From: an uncultured virus (IMG/VR IMGVR_UViG_3300025759_000060)
Taxonomy: Duplodnaviria > Heunggongvirae > Uroviricota > Caudoviricetes
IMG/VR virus record: IMGVR_UViG_3300025759_000060
Direction: 5' to 3' (one strand)
Length of the DNA: 20,000 nt
Below are positions 2,270 to 7,744 of the stretch, one piece after another (the first letter of the stretch is position 1; each line of letters starts with the position of its first letter). A model generated the notes under the pieces. The model worked only from the letters and a program-made list of their open reading frames with translations. It did no database searches and was not told the origin of the DNA. A program made the translations under genes and the position numbers.

Positions 2270-2896
2270 TTAAGTATCAAATAATTTATCTAAGAATCTA
2301 TTTATAATCCATCTAATGATAACAGGTAAGATAACATAAAGAAAAATCCAAGTCAATAAAACTGACCCATATTTTTTCTCAGCGTCTTCTACAACGTTGT
2401 CGTATACAAAATTATAACATTGATCCTTTAGGGTATATCTATCAAAATAATCAGCATTATCAAAAGTAACACCTTTACCCATACACATTGTAGCCCATTG
2501 CTCTGAATATTGCAAGCATTTTTTGGCAATATCTTTGTAGGATTTTTTAGAATATTTTGCTTCTATTTCAGCATAAATATCAGCATTATTGAAATTGCAA
2601 AACTTGACGGTATCAGAAGAATCACCATAGCCAAAACTAAAGTCTGGAAAATTTCTTAACTTTATAGATCCACCTTCTTCTCCAAAAATTATTTGTTCAA
2701 TGTAAGCATAGAACGTAATAAGTTTTGTTATCTCTGCTCTAGGTTGATTTTCGCCAAACTTTATAATTGTTACATTGTCACCATGACTTATGTTTGCAAC
2801 GCAAGGGCTTTCTGCTTTAATCTTAAATCCTTTAACTTCTATTCCATTTCCATTAAAAATATTCCTAAGACTTATATTTATTTCTTTTGGTGACAT
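2270..2896 (-). CDS. Hypothetical protein with C-terminal transmembrane anchor
   Basis: ORF track 2270..2923; ATG at 2896 (MSPKEI) directly follows the upstream stop; hydrophobic VLLTWIFLYVILPVIIRWII near C-terminus. Confidence 0.75.
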   Translation of the reverse strand: MSPKEINISLRNIFNGNGIEVKGFKIKAESPCVANISHGDNVTIIKFGENQPRAEITKLITFYAYIEQIIFGEEGGSIKLRNFPDFSFGYGDSSDTVKFCNFNNADIYAEIEAKYSKKSYKDIAKKCLQYSEQWATMCMGKGVTFDNADYFDRYTLKDQCYNFVYDNVVEDAEKKYGSVLLTWIFLYVILPVIIRWIINRFLDKLFDT

Positions 2897-2898
2897 AT

Positions 2899-3366
2899 TT
2901 ATCCCCCATGTATTAATACCCACGCTACAGCCATAAAATACTCATTTAGTTCTGCTTTCTCAGATTCTTTTAAAGAATGATTGTCATCTCCCATAATTTC
3001 TTTTAACAGTTTTACTATCTCTTCTGCTAGCCCGTCATATTTATCAACTAATGTGTCTTTAAAAAATATTTTTCCAGCAAGAGTATAAACATCATTTACT
3101 TGTTGCGAAGTGGCATTATAGTCTAAAACTCTTTTTGCAAACTCATAGTTAAAAATAGCCAACTTAGCTTTGTCGCTTGGGTCTGTAACAAGTTCAGAAA
3201 ATATTTCAACCCTATTTATAACATCTTCGTGAGGTTTATCTATGCTCAAAATTTTTACTGGTGGCGGTTCTGGATTTGGTTTAGGAGTTTGATCAAGCAA
3301 ATCTAATAAGCCTCCACCGAAAAAACTATATAGCAACAAACCTACTGCTAGTATATTTTTATACAT
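2899..3366 (-). CDS. Membrane-anchored/exported protein with Pro-rich linker and helical domain
   Basis: Likely ATG at 3366 (MYKNILAVGLLLYSFFGGG) just after upstream stop at 3368; linker TPKPNPEPPP. Confidence 0.75.
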   Translation of the reverse strand: MYKNILAVGLLLYSFFGGGLLDLLDQTPKPNPEPPPVKILSIDKPHEDVINRVEIFSELVTDPSDKAKLAIFNYEFAKRVLDYNATSQQVNDVYTLAGKIFFKDTLVDKYDGLAEEIVKLLKEIMGDDNHSLKESEKAELNEYFMAVAWVLIHGG

Positions 3367-3367
3367 T

Positions 3368-3655
3368 TTATTTCTCCGCATTAAATAGTGGAAAAACTTC
3401 ATCTAGCTTTTCCACTGCTTGGTCTAATCCTTCTTCTGTACATTTCTCTTTTAGGGAGTACCATAGGTCTACGATTTCCAAAAAAGGCTTATCAGCAACC
3501 TCGTCTTCCTCGATGATCACCTTGTTCTTTTTTAGAAAATTAAAGCTAAACATACTTTTAACCTTTCCGAATACATAAGACCAACTAATATTTGAAAATA
3601 GTAACACAGACGCTATTGCAATCGCTGCTACTCTTAAAATCATTTCTGTTTCCAT
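3368..3655 (-). CDS. Small N-terminally anchored membrane protein
   Basis: 95 aa; hydrophobic ILRVAAIAIASVLLFSNISW then charged helical tail; GGAG RBS upstream. Confidence 0.75.
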   Translation of the reverse strand: METEMILRVAAIAIASVLLFSNISWSYVFGKVKSMFSFNFLKKNKVIIEEDEVADKPFLEIVDLWYSLKEKCTEEGLDQAVEKLDEVFPLFNAEK

Positions 3656-3668
3656 AATGTCTCCAATC

Positions 3669-4052
3669 CTAATGTTTATAAATTAATAATCCTTCTTTTA
3701 GTATTTTAGCCGTTCCCTCTCCGTGGTATGGGCATTTTGTTTTGTGACCGTCCCCTTGTTTTATCCAGCCTGATCCACCACAAGGGCATTTATCTGGATC
3801 TGGGTTTGGCCCAATAATGTCTGGAGTCGGATTATCTTCTTTAAATATTTCTGAACCCGCTTTGTCGAAAGCAACTTTAACGTCTGCCTTCCATGTTTCT
3901 ATGTAATCTTCATACATGTTTGTAATATCTTCAGTGCTACATCCACAATCTACAGGTCCACCGTCAATAACAGACTGCCTGTTATCCATTATCATAACCG
4001 TTGCAGCTATACTGATTACAGAGATAAAAACAAGCTCAAGATGTTTTTTCAT
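3669..4052 (-). CDS. Exported/anchored protein with Cys/His-rich putative Zn-binding motif
   Basis: Signal-like MKKHLELVFISVISIAATVM; DCGC and CPCGGSGWIKQGDGHKTKCPYH, resembling a DnaJ CxxCxGxG knuckle. Confidence 0.7.
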   Translation of the reverse strand: MKKHLELVFISVISIAATVMIMDNRQSVIDGGPVDCGCSTEDITNMYEDYIETWKADVKVAFDKAGSEIFKEDNPTPDIIGPNPDPDKCPCGGSGWIKQGDGHKTKCPYHGEGTAKILKEGLLIYKH

Positions 4053-4398: not shown

Positions 4399-4701
4399 CT
4401 AAACAACAAAGTAAACTGTGTTTTCATCCTTAGTTAGTGTTGCGTATGACGCAGCATCTGTAAAAACTAAGTTTTGAACACCGCTAACGTTAACACCCTC
4501 TTCTGCACCAGCCTGTACTATGTCTGACTTTATTGCTATTCCAGAAAGGTTTGAAAAAGTTGTAACTCCATCACCGATTTTTAGAGTATTGTCATTTATA
4601 GAGAATCCGGGTTCTCCCTCTCCTAAAACTGTATTAGCAGAAGCCCACTCAGAAGCAGAGCCTCTACGTAATTGCACCCTTGTGTTTGAATAATCTGGCA
4701 T
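4399..4701 (-). CDS. Miniature tail-fibre-related protein with Mtd_N (major tropism determinant N-terminal)-like domain
   Basis: RVQLRRGSASEWASANTVLGEGEPG...LKIGDGVTTFSNL is the Mtd_N signature; C-terminal YATLTKDENTVYFV resembles a common phage tail C-terminal motif. Confidence 0.85.
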   Translation of the reverse strand: MPDYSNTRVQLRRGSASEWASANTVLGEGEPGFSINDNTLKIGDGVTTFSNLSGIAIKSDIVQAGAEEGVNVSGVQNLVFTDAASYATLTKDENTVYFVV

Positions 4702-5621
4702 TAAAACACCTCATCTATCGTAAAGTCTACTTTTCGTGGTGGGAATCCATCCACATCGCTGAACGCCCAAGCTCCATTTTGATTTAGCATACCTCTAGCA
4801 TCTTTTTCTCTAATCCAAAATGATCCGTCTGGTTGATCAAATCGTTTAGGACCACCGTTAAATGCCCCCCAACTATTTTGAATTAAGAATAATGTTTCTT
4901 TATATATTTCATGCGAATCGTCCATGGAAATCCAAGCCATTGCGTGGTTCCATGACCCTGATCTACGAGCTATACCATTAGAGTCTCTACGTGAGGAAAA
5001 TCCGTAATTACTACACACGCTTAAAGCATACCCGTTAGCTATAGCATCTCTAGCTTCTTCGACAGATTTTACTAAACTAATTGTTTTTACTTGGTGCTTC
5101 TTGCCCTCTTCTATTACGTCTCTAGGAACGCCAGATCTTCCCCAACTTGTTCCTATTCTACTATTATATTTAGAAAAGTCAACGAATCCATAATCTTTTC
5201 TAACTAGGATGCCCCCGTTCTGAGCAACAAATCTTGCAGCAACAGAACAGGACATCCCTTGACCGCCATGACCGCGAGATCCATATATTGCTTCGGTTGC
5301 TCCTCTCGCCACAAATTCTTCTGCTTGACCACCAACAATTTCATGACATCTTGTAACATCTACGGCATTACGTGTCGAATGCGAGACGCAATCGCCTGTA
5401 GTTTGTCTTTCGTGAGGTCCAAAACTTGGATCATGTTTTATAGCAGACTTATGCAGTAAAGCAACTTTACCCTTGCCACTACTATATAAATCAGAGGCAG
5501 CAACTCCAAAGAGGGGGTGTGGCAACTCTCCTAAAAGTTTATCAGTATCTTCTGGATCGCACCACGAACCTACAAGTCCGTCCTTATAGGCTTTTAATAT
5601 TTCTTGCGGTGTATTAAACAT
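4701..5621 (-). CDS. Papain-like (C1-type) cysteine peptidase without signal peptide
   Basis: QTTGDCVSH (oxyanion Gln, catalytic Cys), WNHAM (His), IQNSWG (Asn), followed by GSFWI. Confidence 0.85.
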   Translation of the reverse strand: MFNTPQEILKAYKDGLVGSWCDPEDTDKLLGELPHPLFGVAASDLYSSGKGKVALLHKSAIKHDPSFGPHERQTTGDCVSHSTRNAVDVTRCHEIVGGQAEEFVARGATEAIYGSRGHGGQGMSCSVAARFVAQNGGILVRKDYGFVDFSKYNSRIGTSWGRSGVPRDVIEEGKKHQVKTISLVKSVEEARDAIANGYALSVCSNYGFSSRRDSNGIARRSGSWNHAMAWISMDDSHEIYKETLFLIQNSWGAFNGGPKRFDQPDGSFWIREKDARGMLNQNGAWAFSDVDGFPPRKVDFTIDEVF

Positions 5622-5624
5622 TTT

Positions 5625-5846
5625 TTACTCCGACGCATTGTTTTTTGCCCACTTAACTACAGTATTAATTACAACTGCTGCAATTGGTACAAGCATTACG
5701 CCCATATTTCCAAGATCTAGATTACCAAGATTTTCACCTAGATAAGTAAGACCAGCAGCTAAAGCTACAAGTGCTGTATTTTTTGCAATATCTACAACGT
5801 CGGCTACATTAAGAGTGAACGCTGGCGAATTATTTTTATCTGACAT
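5625..5846 (-). CDS. Holin-like two-TM small membrane protein
   Basis: 73 aa; TM1 TALVALAAGLTYLG, TM2 MGVMLVPIAAVVINTVV, basic tail KWAK; immediately upstream of the peptidase. Confidence 0.6.
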   Translation of the reverse strand: MSDKNNSPAFTLNVADVVDIAKNTALVALAAGLTYLGENLGNLDLGNMGVMLVPIAAVVINTVVKWAKNNASE

Positions 5847-5848
5847 TT

Positions 5849-6439
5849 TTATACCTCTTCAGTTTTTGAAACACTTACTAAAAATCCTCCGTGCTTATCC
5901 TCATCTATGCGATACGGATAACCTAAAAATCTTATTTCTTCTCCATCGAAATTTTTTGTTGGTCTTGAGAATCTTCTGTTCATTGTTAGGCAAGACATAA
6001 ATTCTTTTAAGACTTCTTCTCTTTCGTCTTCATGGATAATATTTAACCAATCAAAACCCTCAAGACTTGCTCCACCTATTGGCAAGAACTTAAAAAAATT
6101 TGCATTGCTCCATGTCATTCTTCCGTCTTCGTCTGTTTCAAACAGTGCAGCACCGCTGTAATGTAAAGCAGCCTTAGTTCTTTGGATGATAACTTTTTGT
6201 CGTTTTTCTATTCTTTCGCAGCTTTTGCCCATAGATATTATAGCATCTTTTAAGCTACTACCACCATTAGTTGTAAGTTCTTTTTTTATTTCGTTTACAG
6301 ATTCTATAAAGAAATCTTGATTTTTGCATAGTTTTACAATTGGTTTAAGAAATTTTTTCCATAATATGGTTATAAGACCAATCGCTCCACTCAAACCTCC
6401 AAATATAATTGTAATTACTTCTGGATTTAATTCTGTCAC
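5849..6439 (-). CDS. TM + NGGSS coiled-coil (holin-associated) protein fused to a C-terminal PAS domain
   Basis: GTG start after GAGGGG RBS; TM VITIIFGGLSGAIGLITILW; ELTTNGGSSLKDAI; PAS signature ALFETDEDGRMTWSN...EGFDWLNIIHEDERE. Confidence 0.8.
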   Translation of the reverse strand: MTELNPEVITIIFGGLSGAIGLITILWKKFLKPIVKLCKNQDFFIESVNEIKKELTTNGGSSLKDAIISMGKSCERIEKRQKVIIQRTKAALHYSGAALFETDEDGRMTWSNANFFKFLPIGGASLEGFDWLNIIHEDEREEVLKEFMSCLTMNRRFSRPTKNFDGEEIRFLGYPYRIDEDKHGGFLVSVSKTEEV

Positions 6440-6456: not shown

Positions 6457-6492
6457 GAAAATAAAAGACACGCCCCCCTTGGAGGGCGTATC
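6457..6492 (-). terminator. Intrinsic terminator after the 222-aa gene
   Basis: Minus strand GATACGCCCTC-CAAG-GGGGGCGTGTC followed by TTTTATTTT. Confidence 0.85.
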
Positions 6493-6511
6493 CCTTTGCT
6501 AAAACAAAATA

Positions 6512-7180
6512 TTAAGAAGACGTATCTGTTGCGTCTTCAAATGCATCTCTAGCTTTGTACTCGTCCGTAGTTGCCTTGCCAAGACCACCAAAGTGGTAGG
6601 TAAGTTCACCCGGAACTCCTCTAGTTGGACTAGCTGCTTGATCTGTAGCAGCCGTGCTGCCATCCTTCTGTACAAAATTCTGAGCATCGCCAGCATTTGA
6701 TCCCTTGGTCCTGCCCGGAACAACACCGCTACTAGGAACAGCAAGGACATCAAAAGCTACATCGGCAGCACTTCCAAGTCTGCGAGTAGACGATATTCTG
6801 TGGATACTATCTTGACCAACGCTATCATACTGAGCGCCGGGGATGGTTAGTAAGGTTGAGGCATCGTTATTAATTTTGCCAGCACCTTCTGATCCAGCAG
6901 CCTTAATAATGAAATTCCTCTCTCCCCTTGCTGGACTATACGCCAGCCCCCCAGTGCCACCAGCCTTGGCTGTTGTAACACCTTGAGGATCTTCAAATAA
7001 ACCTCCATCACCACCGTCATTAGCTTTGACTTTTGATCCATACTCAGAGCCTGTTGCAAGCTCATTTGGATTAAGTGTGTCAGTAATAGGACTATCTGAT
7101 GCTGGTGTGCCTGCGTTGGTGACTGTGCCGCCATCAACTTTTTCAACACCGCCAGCTTGTTTTGCAGCTGTAGTAGACAT
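6512..7180 (-). CDS. Gly/Ala/Thr/Asp-rich putative virion structural (decoration-like) protein
   Basis: 222 aa, no Cys or Trp, small-residue-rich; GGAG RBS, own leader and terminator suggest high expression; function inferred only. Confidence 0.55.
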   Translation of the reverse strand: MSTTAAKQAGGVEKVDGGTVTNAGTPASDSPITDTLNPNELATGSEYGSKVKANDGGDGGLFEDPQGVTTAKAGGTGGLAYSPARGERNFIIKAAGSEGAGKINNDASTLLTIPGAQYDSVGQDSIHRISSTRRLGSAADVAFDVLAVPSSGVVPGRTKGSNAGDAQNFVQKDGSTAATDQAASPTRGVPGELTYHFGGLGKATTDEYKARDAFEDATDTSS

Positions 7181-7267: not shown

Positions 7268-7744
7268 TTATACAAACTTGTGCTGAAAATTTTTAGTCAT
7301 TTTTTTGACCTTTTTCCTAACAGTTTCCTTGCCAATGTCGTATTTATTTGATAGTTCTTCATTAGTCATTTTTGATATTTTATCTTTTAAAAGACTTTTT
7401 TCAAAGTCATTTTCAGCCTCGTCCAAAATGTCAATTATCATTTCTTCAGTATTATTAACGCTTTGGATGGAAGGGTTTAATTTTCCACAAAATTTGCTTT
7501 TATTTACAAATTTAACAGCTTTTAAACATTCAATATAAACACCCTTATACAGATAGGTAGTAAATTTACATTTCTTCTCTGGTTTAAAATTTAAGAAACA
7601 TTTCCACAAAGCATTAAGTTTGCAAGTGTAAATATCTTCTTGTTCTAACTGATTGACAAACTTCTTACAAGCATGATTCATGATATTAACAATATCTTTG
7701 TCATTAAGAGCGTTTTCAATTTTTTTATCAATGCATTCTAACAT
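7268..7744 (-). CDS. Small sigma70-family (ECF-sized) RNA polymerase sigma factor
   Basis: Region 2-like EDIY...ALWKCFLNFKPEKKCKFTTYLY; region 4 HTH MTNEELSNKYDIGKETVRKK; AGGAG RBS. Confidence 0.75.
   Translation of the reverse strand: MLECIDKKIENALNDKDIVNIMNHACKKFVNQLEQEDIYTCKLNALWKCFLNFKPEKKCKFTTYLYKGVYIECLKAVKFVNKSKFCGKLNPSIQSVNNTEEMIIDILDEAENDFEKSLLKDKISKMTNEELSNKYDIGKETVRKKVKKMTKNFQHKFV

Follow-up and report, generated by a model that had tools for sequence, protein, structure and literature searches.

The DNA analyzed here (the window) is a 20,000-nucleotide stretch of an uncultured virus of the Caudoviricetes (IMG/VR record IMGVR_UViG_3300025759_000060). It is a single block of genes of a large uncultured phage, all on the minus strand, and encodes an rIIB-like protein, a class II ribonucleotide reductase (RNR), a single-stranded DNA-binding protein, a dCMP deaminase, glycosyltransferases, a sigma-factor-like protein, and a tail-fiber N-terminal domain. 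We examined the gene at 5849..6439. An original prediction had proposed that its product combines a transmembrane (TM) helix, an NGGSS motif, and a terminal PAS domain, with no kinase, GGDEF, or helix-turn-helix (HTH) domain, and this architecture was borne out by the open reading frame (ORF), an AlphaFold2 (AF2) model, Foldseek, and Pfam. The gene, the parts of its product, and the two genes that follow it are:

5849..6439, minus strand: gene for the membrane-anchored PAS protein, a 196-aa ORF with 342 homologs and 80 syntenic viral loci
6362..6418, minus strand: single N-terminal TM helix, residues 8-26, from hydropathy and charge, predicted N-out/C-in
6158..6361, minus strand: predicted cytoplasmic helical stalk, residues 27-94, which bears the motif, from AF2 helices
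6239-6280, minus strand: ELTTNGGSSLKDAI motif, residues 54-67, from the sequence, its invariant core, and a profile match to short forms
5864..6157, minus strand: C-terminal PAS-fold domain, residues ~95-192, from the AF2 model, Foldseek, and relatives above the Pfam PAS thresholds
5625..5846, minus strand: gene for a 73-aa two-helix membrane protein, holin-like, starting 2 nt past the stop of the PAS gene
4701..5621, minus strand: gene for a 306-aa peptidase of papain (C1A) fold, starting 3 nt past the stop of the 73-aa gene

The PAS gene begins with a GTG codon, 7-8 nt downstream of the ribosome-binding site GAGGGG, and the start position is the same in the aligned homologs. Among 617 candidates, 342 were homologs at E ≤ 1e-3; the 120 of these that were listed have lengths of 189-237 aa and identities of 57-92%, and the sources are marine, Tara, and JGI metagenomes, with some contigs of up to 173 kb. 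A HMMER search of 1.84 billion cluster representatives returned 1165 at E ≤ 1e-3, of which 117 reached E ≤ 1e-10 and 16 reached E ≤ 1e-30. Among the best 150 of the 1165, NGG was present in 118 and was combined with a length of 160-300 aa in 103, and several of the representatives that lacked it had PNSG or PNHG variants. Seven of the best 150 were kinases or multi-PAS proteins of at least 1000 aa that aligned through the PAS region only, and in one protein (P0143, 385 aa) two PAS domains come after the motif. The motif-bearing proteins among the best 150 lack kinase, GGDEF, and HTH domains, as judged by their length and by scanning 25 of them. These matches indicate that the gene is conserved far beyond chance.

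Residues 8-26 have a mean Kyte-Doolittle hydropathy of 2.28 over 19 residues. The 7 residues before this helix include no Lys or Arg and two acidic residues, and the 15 residues after it include five Lys; the C-terminal flank was the more basic one in 30/30 close relatives and in 48 of 50 distant relatives. Because of these flank charges, the positive-inside rule predicts an N-out/C-in topology, with the remainder of the protein in the cytoplasm. In the AF2 model the stalk is formed by two helices (H6-58 and H60-93) that are broken at G59, within the NGG, and the predicted local distance difference test score (pLDDT) is 57 around the motif; the coiled coil suggested for this region has the long predicted helices as its sole basis. 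T57, N58, G59, G60, S62, K64, and D65 are invariant in all 30 aligned relatives, and the motif is the best-conserved feature of the wide family (consensus ELxPNGGSSLRDAIxRIE).

The only library family that covers the motif is phrog_9869 (98 positions, function not assigned), which was matched by 14 of 20 distant relatives at E ≤ 1e-3 (best 1.1e-9). We scanned IMG/VR and a genome collection with degenerate DNA patterns for the motif and obtained 162 loci, 156 of which had a motif ORF: 42 long forms with a PAS domain and 114 short forms. At 70% identity these reduced to 24 nonredundant long and 32 nonredundant short forms, the latter mostly 64-170 aa, in which a TM helix and the motif precede a helical or charged tail. 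An hhalign comparison of the PAS-protein family with 27 short PNGG proteins gave 97.8% (E 7.6e-13, 70 columns), and the PAS protein is therefore the short-form module with an added PAS domain. By this profile similarity, together with the presence of a TM domain (TMD) and of the motif within ~30 residues of it, the N-terminal module (core residues 57-65) is homologous to the short TM-PNGGSS proteins. A DUF2746-like relationship, which the original prediction had raised, found no support, as DUF2746 was not matched by the PAS protein at E ≤ 1 or by nine short and five long forms at E ≤ 0.1.

Tblastn searches of 50,697 cultured-phage records gave no match for the PAS protein, the 306-aa peptidase, two distant PAS relatives, or two short forms. 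A permissive tblastn search (E ≤ 5) with the short form of locus L084 gave weak matches that led to three cultured phages. In Streptomyces phage mu1/6, gp52 has a TM segment followed by HPNSGSSLRDAV; it belongs to phrog_9869 over its full length (E 2e-32), and its gene comes after those of the endolysin (gp50) and the holin (gp51). Microbacterium phage McGalleon gp26 (TNHGSKNIGDAI; phrog_4153) lies between endolysin and holin, and Streptomyces phage Izzy gp26 (NTHSTNLRDD; phrog_3534) lies immediately before the endolysin. The proposed association of the NGGSS motif with small membrane proteins of lysis cassettes is thus substantiated by mu1/6 gp52 and by the variants in McGalleon and Izzy; a literature search for "NGGSS" returned unrelated papers only. 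In a subgroup of short forms (L186, L189, L210, L219, L226, L231, L117, and mu1/6 gp52 at L120:3830-4105), a second block, DDW.G.P.RPG.P.RPG..ERL, lies between the membrane helix and PNGG.

The C-terminal half of the protein is predicted to adopt a PAS fold without an output domain. The AF2 model, built from a 30-sequence alignment (mean pLDDT 78; predicted template modeling score [pTM] 0.55), has strands at residues 98-102, 108-111, 157-163, 168-177, and 183-192 and helices at 113-118, 130-134, and 137-153, with a pLDDT of 80-92 over most of the domain. The arrangement is the canonical PAS one of five strands and four helices, an antiparallel sheet with flanking helices, and the chain ends 4 residues past the last strand. 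Foldseek returned 215 matches in the PDB at E ≤ 1e-3; the top ones listed are all PAS/LOV proteins (E 7e-6 to 2e-4, best 7.2e-6), and those listed include 4GW9, 6PPS, 4HJ4, and 3LYX. The best two matches in BFVD are both named "PAS domain [uncultured Caudovirales phage]" (205 aa, E 6.8e-11; 195 aa, E 1.1e-8). The expectation that the C terminus would model as PAS therefore held. Pfam supported it through the relatives and not through the PAS protein itself, which fell below the cutoffs (PAS_3 E 0.0014, 19.3 bits versus 25.6; PAS 17.4 versus 22.6): 12 of 18 relatives of the same architecture (184-385 aa) and 5/5 long forms exceeded at least one Pfam PAS cutoff, the families being PAS_3, PAS_4, and PAS, and distant relatives matched PAS_3 strongly (P0163, E 1.2e-15; L085, 1.9e-15). 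In phmmer searches, residues 75-190 matched multi-PAS histidine kinases (E 1e-15 to 1e-10), and a PDB sequence search with the close-family alignment gave a marginal PAS match (3EWK, E 0.011). The PAS call is based on the model with its Foldseek matches, the relatives above the Pfam thresholds, and the phmmer matches. The Pfam scan of the PAS protein found no kinase, GGDEF, or HTH family.

Light had been among the signals originally suggested, and this idea found no support: the NCRFL cysteine motif of LOV photoreceptors (GxNCRFLQ, in helix E-alpha) is not in the PAS protein. The nearest LOV-like string, MNRRF (residues 153-157), lies past helix F-alpha and has no cysteine, and we rejected a LOV photoreceptor.

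C150, H183, and H93 are invariant in the close family and are not kept in the wide family, and so no cofactor can be inferred from them. In 50 diverse members of the wide family, no cofactor or ligand residue is conserved. This is what would be expected if the protein were a constitutive lysis regulator in which the PAS domain senses no signal and serves as a dimerization module in place of a charged tail. PAS domains commonly dimerize, and in the short forms this position is occupied by a charged helical tail. Many surface and core residues of the PAS domain are invariant in the lineage, though, and the domain is kept across hundreds of clusters; such conservation would be unusual for a mere spacer, yet it is compatible with a dimer interface. 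We regard a PAS domain that only dimerizes as possible but rather unlikely.

The N-terminal module also resembles a class of mycobacteriophage lysis regulators. The accessible text of two preprints describes 1-TMD proteins of N-out/C-in topology that are needed for efficient, well-timed lysis: LysF1b of phages Girr and NormanBulbieJr (NBJ) (bioRxiv 10.64898/2025.12.04.692442) and LysA2b, which is gp30 of phage D29 (bioRxiv 10.64898/2026.08.27.747656). The evidence given there comes from deletion, complementation, and suppressor genetics: deletion of lysF1b or lysA2b causes lysis defects, and suppressors arise in the 2-TMD partner, LysF1a or LysA2a (10.64898/2025.12.04.692442; 10.64898/2026.08.27.747656). 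D29 gp30 sits among minor tail genes, and the 1-TMD and 2-TMD genes of D29 itself are not adjacent (10.64898/2026.08.27.747656). The accessible text of PMC9671378 describes 1-TM proteins of N-out/C-in topology in the lysis cassettes of Gordonia phages, and it summarizes work on phage Ms6 in which Gp4 (2 TM) and Gp5 (1 TM) interact and set the timing of lysis.

After its helix, D29 gp30 has SNSHDENLRDEI, where the PAS protein has TNGGSSLKDAI. D29 gp30 matches phrog_404 (2.8e-25) and phrog_3534 (3e-3), Izzy gp26 matches the same two families (phrog_3534, 1.5e-51; phrog_404, 1.2e-19), and the short NGGSS protein of L084 matches both as well as phrog_9869 (phrog_3534, 1.4e-10; phrog_9869, 1.4e-6; phrog_404, 1.3e-4). 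A PAS-bearing relative, P0183, matches phrog_404 at 3e-4. Through this transitive chain of profiles, homology of the N-terminal module with LysF1b and LysA2b is likely but unproven; the functional analogy is the stronger statement, and the family of the module resembles these regulators and is probably a distant relative of theirs.

One TMD joined to a globular domain in a chain of ~200 aa is also the build of class III holins, and the PAS protein could itself be a hole-forming single-TMD holin of the T4 T or phiKZ type III-like kind, with the 73-aa protein as its antiholin or co-holin. Foldseek against BFVD did return Proteus phage holins (207 and 218 aa; E 0.05-0.06, TM-score 0.33-0.41), and mu1/6 gp52 weakly matches phrog_15431, annotated "holin" (4.2e-5). 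The BFVD matches are not significant, however, and we rejected membership in class III holins, as the PAS protein has no match to Pfam Phage_holin_T, and so no detected sequence relation to T4 T, at E ≤ 1, and its predicted N-out/C-in topology is opposite to that of T4 T, given as N-in/C-out in the accessible text of 10.64898/2025.12.04.692442. The mycobacteriophage precedent also speaks against a holin: phages that have the 1-TMD protein alone stay lysis competent, and hole formation by it is not established in the accessible text of the two preprints (10.64898/2025.12.04.692442; 10.64898/2026.08.27.747656). We consider a holin role for the PAS protein improbable.

The genes around the PAS gene are preserved in its lineage. 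In 80 related IMG/VR loci (43-94% identity), the order is glycosyltransferase, two small genes, sigma-like gene, 222-aa gene, PAS gene, 73-aa gene, 306-aa gene. The 73-aa gene lies immediately downstream of the PAS gene in 79/80 loci and, like the 2-TMD partner genes of LysF1b and LysA2b, is an adjacent gene for a protein with two hydrophobic segments; its product has a basic C terminus. In the Atlas, the clusters nearest to the 73-aa protein bear the automatic name "Holin family protein" (scores 0.95 and 0.94); we treat this as a lead only.

The 306-aa peptidase gene comes next after the 73-aa gene in 65 of the 80 loci. Q73, C78, H226, and N249-S-W-G are invariant in the peptidase, and its AF2 model (pLDDT 76, pTM 0.82) matches papain-family structures, the best by Foldseek being xylellain (3OIS, E 1.1e-10); Pfam and PDB sequence searches, with the single sequence and with a profile, gave no match. 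The peptidase occupies the place where an endolysin would be expected. In five related records (four at least 90% complete), ten endolysin Pfam families (Phage_lysozyme, Amidase_2, SLT, Peptidase_M15_4, GH19, GH108, M23, Amidase_3, NLPC_P60, and GH25) were absent at the cutoffs, in searches whose GH19 and GH108 controls were silent, and the sole trace was a sub-threshold Amidase_3 match of 13.3 bits. The absence of these families and the presence of the papain-fold gene make the locus look like a lysis cassette in which a protease would be the enzyme.

One sub-lineage differs behind the 73-aa gene: in L046, L057, L064-L071, and L075, this gene is followed directly by a class I RNR (nrdA/nrdB), dUTPase, and PhoH, with neither the peptidase gene nor the small genes that come after it at that position. 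A search of five such records with the peptidase profile was empty, and this carries no weight, since the records are 16-63% complete and there was no positive control.

Outside the lineage, the association with lysis genes is present but partial. We annotated the neighboring genes with PHROGs and set aside L211, L222, and L237, which belong to the window's own lineage, from the 24 long forms. A PHROG of the lysis category lay within two genes in 5 of the 21 others. In L205 the order is holin, endolysin, PAS protein; in L233 the second gene upstream of the PAS gene is endolysin-like; and in L091, L096, and L094 an amidase-type endolysin adjoins or is near the PAS gene. As L091, L094, and L096 are related to one another, the five cases represent three independent lineages. 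In L212 the PAS relative is followed by a gene (3250-3570, minus strand) whose 106-aa product has a TM helix at its N terminus, a long charged helix, and weak matches to Rz-like spanins (E 1.3e-3 to 2.5e-3). Among the short forms, an endolysin or holin lay within two genes in 7/32 (L099, L144, L157, L219, L231, L210, and L189). The chance expectation is roughly 5-10% where a phage has 50-200 genes and one to three of them are recognized lysis genes, a rough figure that is not from a matched random set; because the observed fractions exceed it, we regard the association of the motif proteins with lysis genes as real but moderate.

The other features of the window around the PAS gene are:

6463..6496, minus strand: GC-rich, terminator-like hairpin with a T-run and a 15-pair stem, between the 222-aa and PAS genes
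6512..7180, minus strand: 222-aa gene, function not assigned, the upstream neighbor in 80/80 loci
7268-7744, minus strand: gene for a sigma-70 region 2-like 158-aa protein (phrog_351, E 5.6e-9; Pfam Sigma70_r2 sub-threshold)
4399-4701, minus strand: 100-aa ORF with the Mtd_N tail-fiber N-terminal domain alone (E 1.3e-13), which follows the peptidase gene
3368-4052 and 2270-3402, minus strand: run of small genes behind the tail-fiber-like gene, no family

In 78 of the 80 loci the same 56-107 nt gap contains a strong hairpin (minimum free energy of -20 to -39 kcal/mol), whose sequence varies between loci. This hairpin probably acts as a terminator or mRNA-stabilizing element and so reduces expression of the cassette downstream of it. 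Because the PAS start codon lies ~24 nt past the hairpin, expression of the cassette may depend on read-through and be weaker than that of the upstream gene. The 222-aa product of that gene is rich in Gly, Thr, and Ala, with a highly conserved C terminus (GELTYHFGG...DEYKA.DAFEDATDTSS); it has no Pfam or PHROG family, and the Atlas gave nothing useful (best score 0.76). At the Mtd_N position, related loci have tail-fiber genes of 700-1400 aa, and the fiber gene of the window may therefore be truncated or modular.

In the run of small genes, the 127-aa product combines a hydrophobic helix at its N terminus with a cysteine cluster (CxC...CPCGG...CPYHG), and the 95-aa product has an N-terminal helix; the 127-, 95-, 167-, and 217-aa genes recur in ~24-35 of the 80 loci and may encode additional envelope or lysis components.

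DNA nearly identical to that of the window was found in freshwater, estuarine, and marine metagenomes: 14 runs contained at least half of the sampled words, and 3 of these are possibly the source of the window DNA itself. Contigs from four RNA libraries include the 222-aa gene in every library and parts of the PAS gene in two (X15 and, for a relative, X18). These contigs give no ranking of expression, the libraries may hold DNA, and uncovered stretches are meaningless, so that neither expression level nor transcript structure is proven by them.

In 75/80 loci the second gene upstream of the PAS gene is the sigma-like one, and its product may be a late sigma factor. This arrangement would suit a role outside lysis, in which the membrane-anchored PAS protein acts on host signaling or on late gene control, for example as a decoy that pairs with host PAS kinases or by sequestering a regulator at the membrane. 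The decoy idea, which came from the original prediction, found no support. PAS-bearing relatives occur in varied contexts, and the closest cellular matches of the PAS domain are in sensor kinases. On the other side, the N-terminal module is common to lysis-cassette proteins that have no PAS domain, the gene is tightly coupled to the small two-helix membrane gene, and no host partner is identifiable. We judge such a non-lysis role to be improbable as well.

The tail-fiber-like gene behind the window's peptidase might instead suggest an accessory of tail or virion assembly. In the same direction, phrog_404 is annotated "minor tail protein," and relatives in L084, L085, L088, L097, L104, and L238 stand beside tape-measure, tail-fiber, or structural genes. 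Actinophage lysis cassettes normally come after tail genes, though, so proximity to tail genes is to be expected. A cytoplasmic PAS domain on an inner-membrane anchor also fits a virion part poorly, and D29 gp30, a phrog_404 member encoded among minor tail genes, is by genetics a lysis regulator (10.64898/2026.08.27.747656, accessible text). We find a virion role very improbable.

We favor the reading that the PAS protein is a LysF1b-like lysis regulator with an added PAS domain, encoded in a lysis-like cassette, and put its probability at about one half. Gene order and the LysF1b/LysA2b precedent make the originally suggested holin or antiholin role plausible. Several observations weigh against it. 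The argument for a role in lysis is built on gene neighborhood and distant homology only. Although the original prediction that homologs are linked to lysis genes held for the five long and seven short forms described above, it failed for 16 of the 21 long forms outside the lineage, which have no recognized lysis gene within two genes; these 16 lie among structural, DNA-metabolism, or unannotated genes, some of them among genes for DNA metabolism (L101, L105, and L239) or for tail and head proteins (L085, L092, L097, and L238). The PAS protein itself matches phrog_9869 weakly (E 0.0063), and when the short-form profile was aligned directly with D29 gp30 by hhalign, the probability was 9%, which is not significant. 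Neither Pfam nor PHROGs has a holin family, or indeed any family, that the 73-aa protein matches. In L055 a class II RNR comes after the PAS gene and no 73-aa gene is recognizable, and ~12 loci lack the peptidase block at its usual position after the 73-aa gene. Missing Pfam families are no proof that a muralytic enzyme is absent, and no cofactor or ligand residue is conserved across the wide family.

If the PAS protein is a regulator of this kind, it would be a single-pass protein of the inner membrane, with a short N terminus facing outward and with the stalk, its TNGGSSLKD sequence, and the PAS domain in the cytoplasm. Its cognate partner would be the 73-aa two-helix protein, whose gene would be translationally coupled to its own, and the helix and motif-bearing stalk would act on this protein in the manner of LysF1b on LysF1a and of LysA2b on LysA2a. 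Gating by the PAS domain could occur through binding of a cytoplasmic ligand or protein or through oligomerization. Because this domain takes the place of the charged helical tail of the short forms, the timing of the regulator, or whether it acts at all, would depend on it. Firing of the 73-aa protein would then let the papain-fold peptidase, as the effector, reach or act on its target in the envelope. We are doubtful of a broader version, in which PAS-sensor lysis regulators are widespread, read the state of the cell (energy, redox, or a metabolite), and time the firing of a two-helix, holin-like protein, which in this lineage would release or activate a papain-type protease, not a peptidoglycan hydrolase; lysis would then be signal gated within a protease-based system.

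Lysis timing is, to our knowledge, known in detail for few models, in which the sole signal-responsive element we know of is the periplasmic RI/T system of T4. If the favored reading is true, the PAS protein would be the first candidate cytoplasmic sensor to be coupled directly to the lysis clock. Proteins with the module and a size that accommodates a PAS domain make up at least 103 of the best 150 cluster representatives, and the lineage is found in marine, estuarine, and freshwater metagenomes; the gene could thus provide a handle on an abundant lineage of large aquatic phages that seemingly lacks standard endolysins. The class of 1-TMD lysis regulators is already known, from the 2026 preprints and earlier from Ms6 Gp5, and it is the PAS-bearing version that would be new: a full-text literature search, with subscription journals outside its scope, found no description of a PAS domain in a lysis cassette. 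LysF1b and LysA2b, defined genetically only in the 2026 preprints, have a simple charged tail (10.64898/2025.12.04.692442; 10.64898/2026.08.27.747656, accessible text).

LysF1b and LysA2b resemble the PAS protein in several respects: a single TMD at the N terminus that is predicted to be N-out/C-in, basic residues following it, and a cytoplasmic part that is helical. They are likewise paired with a small 2-TMD protein of N-in/C-in type encoded in a tightly spaced adjacent gene, and they have a similarly shaped motif after the helix, with cross-matches among phrog_404, phrog_3534, and phrog_9869. They differ in the tail, which in LysF1b and LysA2b is short, ~50% charged (KRDE), and helical, whereas the PAS protein has a globular PAS domain instead. 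The gene order is also opposite, with the 1-TMD gene first in the window phage, and the enzyme that follows there is of papain fold, in contrast to the lysin A and lysin B of mycobacteriophages. The phrog_9869 proteins, such as mu1/6 gp52, share the TMD and the E-L-x-P-N-(G/S)-G-S-S-L-R-D-A motif with the PAS protein but are ~65-150 aa long and, unlike the 196-aa PAS protein, have no PAS domain.

Short stand-alone PAS/LOV proteins and PAS-containing kinases (RsLOV, 4HJ4; PpSB1-LOV; the bacteriophytochrome 4GW9) have the PAS fold in common with the phage protein, which lacks an enzymatic output domain, as do the short LOV proteins. It differs from them in being phage encoded and anchored in the membrane by a phage-specific N-terminal module, and in having neither the LOV cysteine nor identifiable cofactor residues. 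In T4, the holin T is timed by the antiholins RI (periplasmic) and RIII (cytoplasmic), so that a soluble sensing or binding domain times holin firing (PMC11413866 and PMC8385771, accessible text), much as we propose here. PMC11413866, in its accessible text, does not use the word PAS or call T PAS-like. T itself resembles the PAS protein in having a single TMD, ~200 aa, and a globular domain. Its topology is opposite, however: according to the same accessible text, the domain of T is periplasmic and RI senses in the periplasm, whereas the PAS domain of the window phage is predicted to be cytoplasmic.

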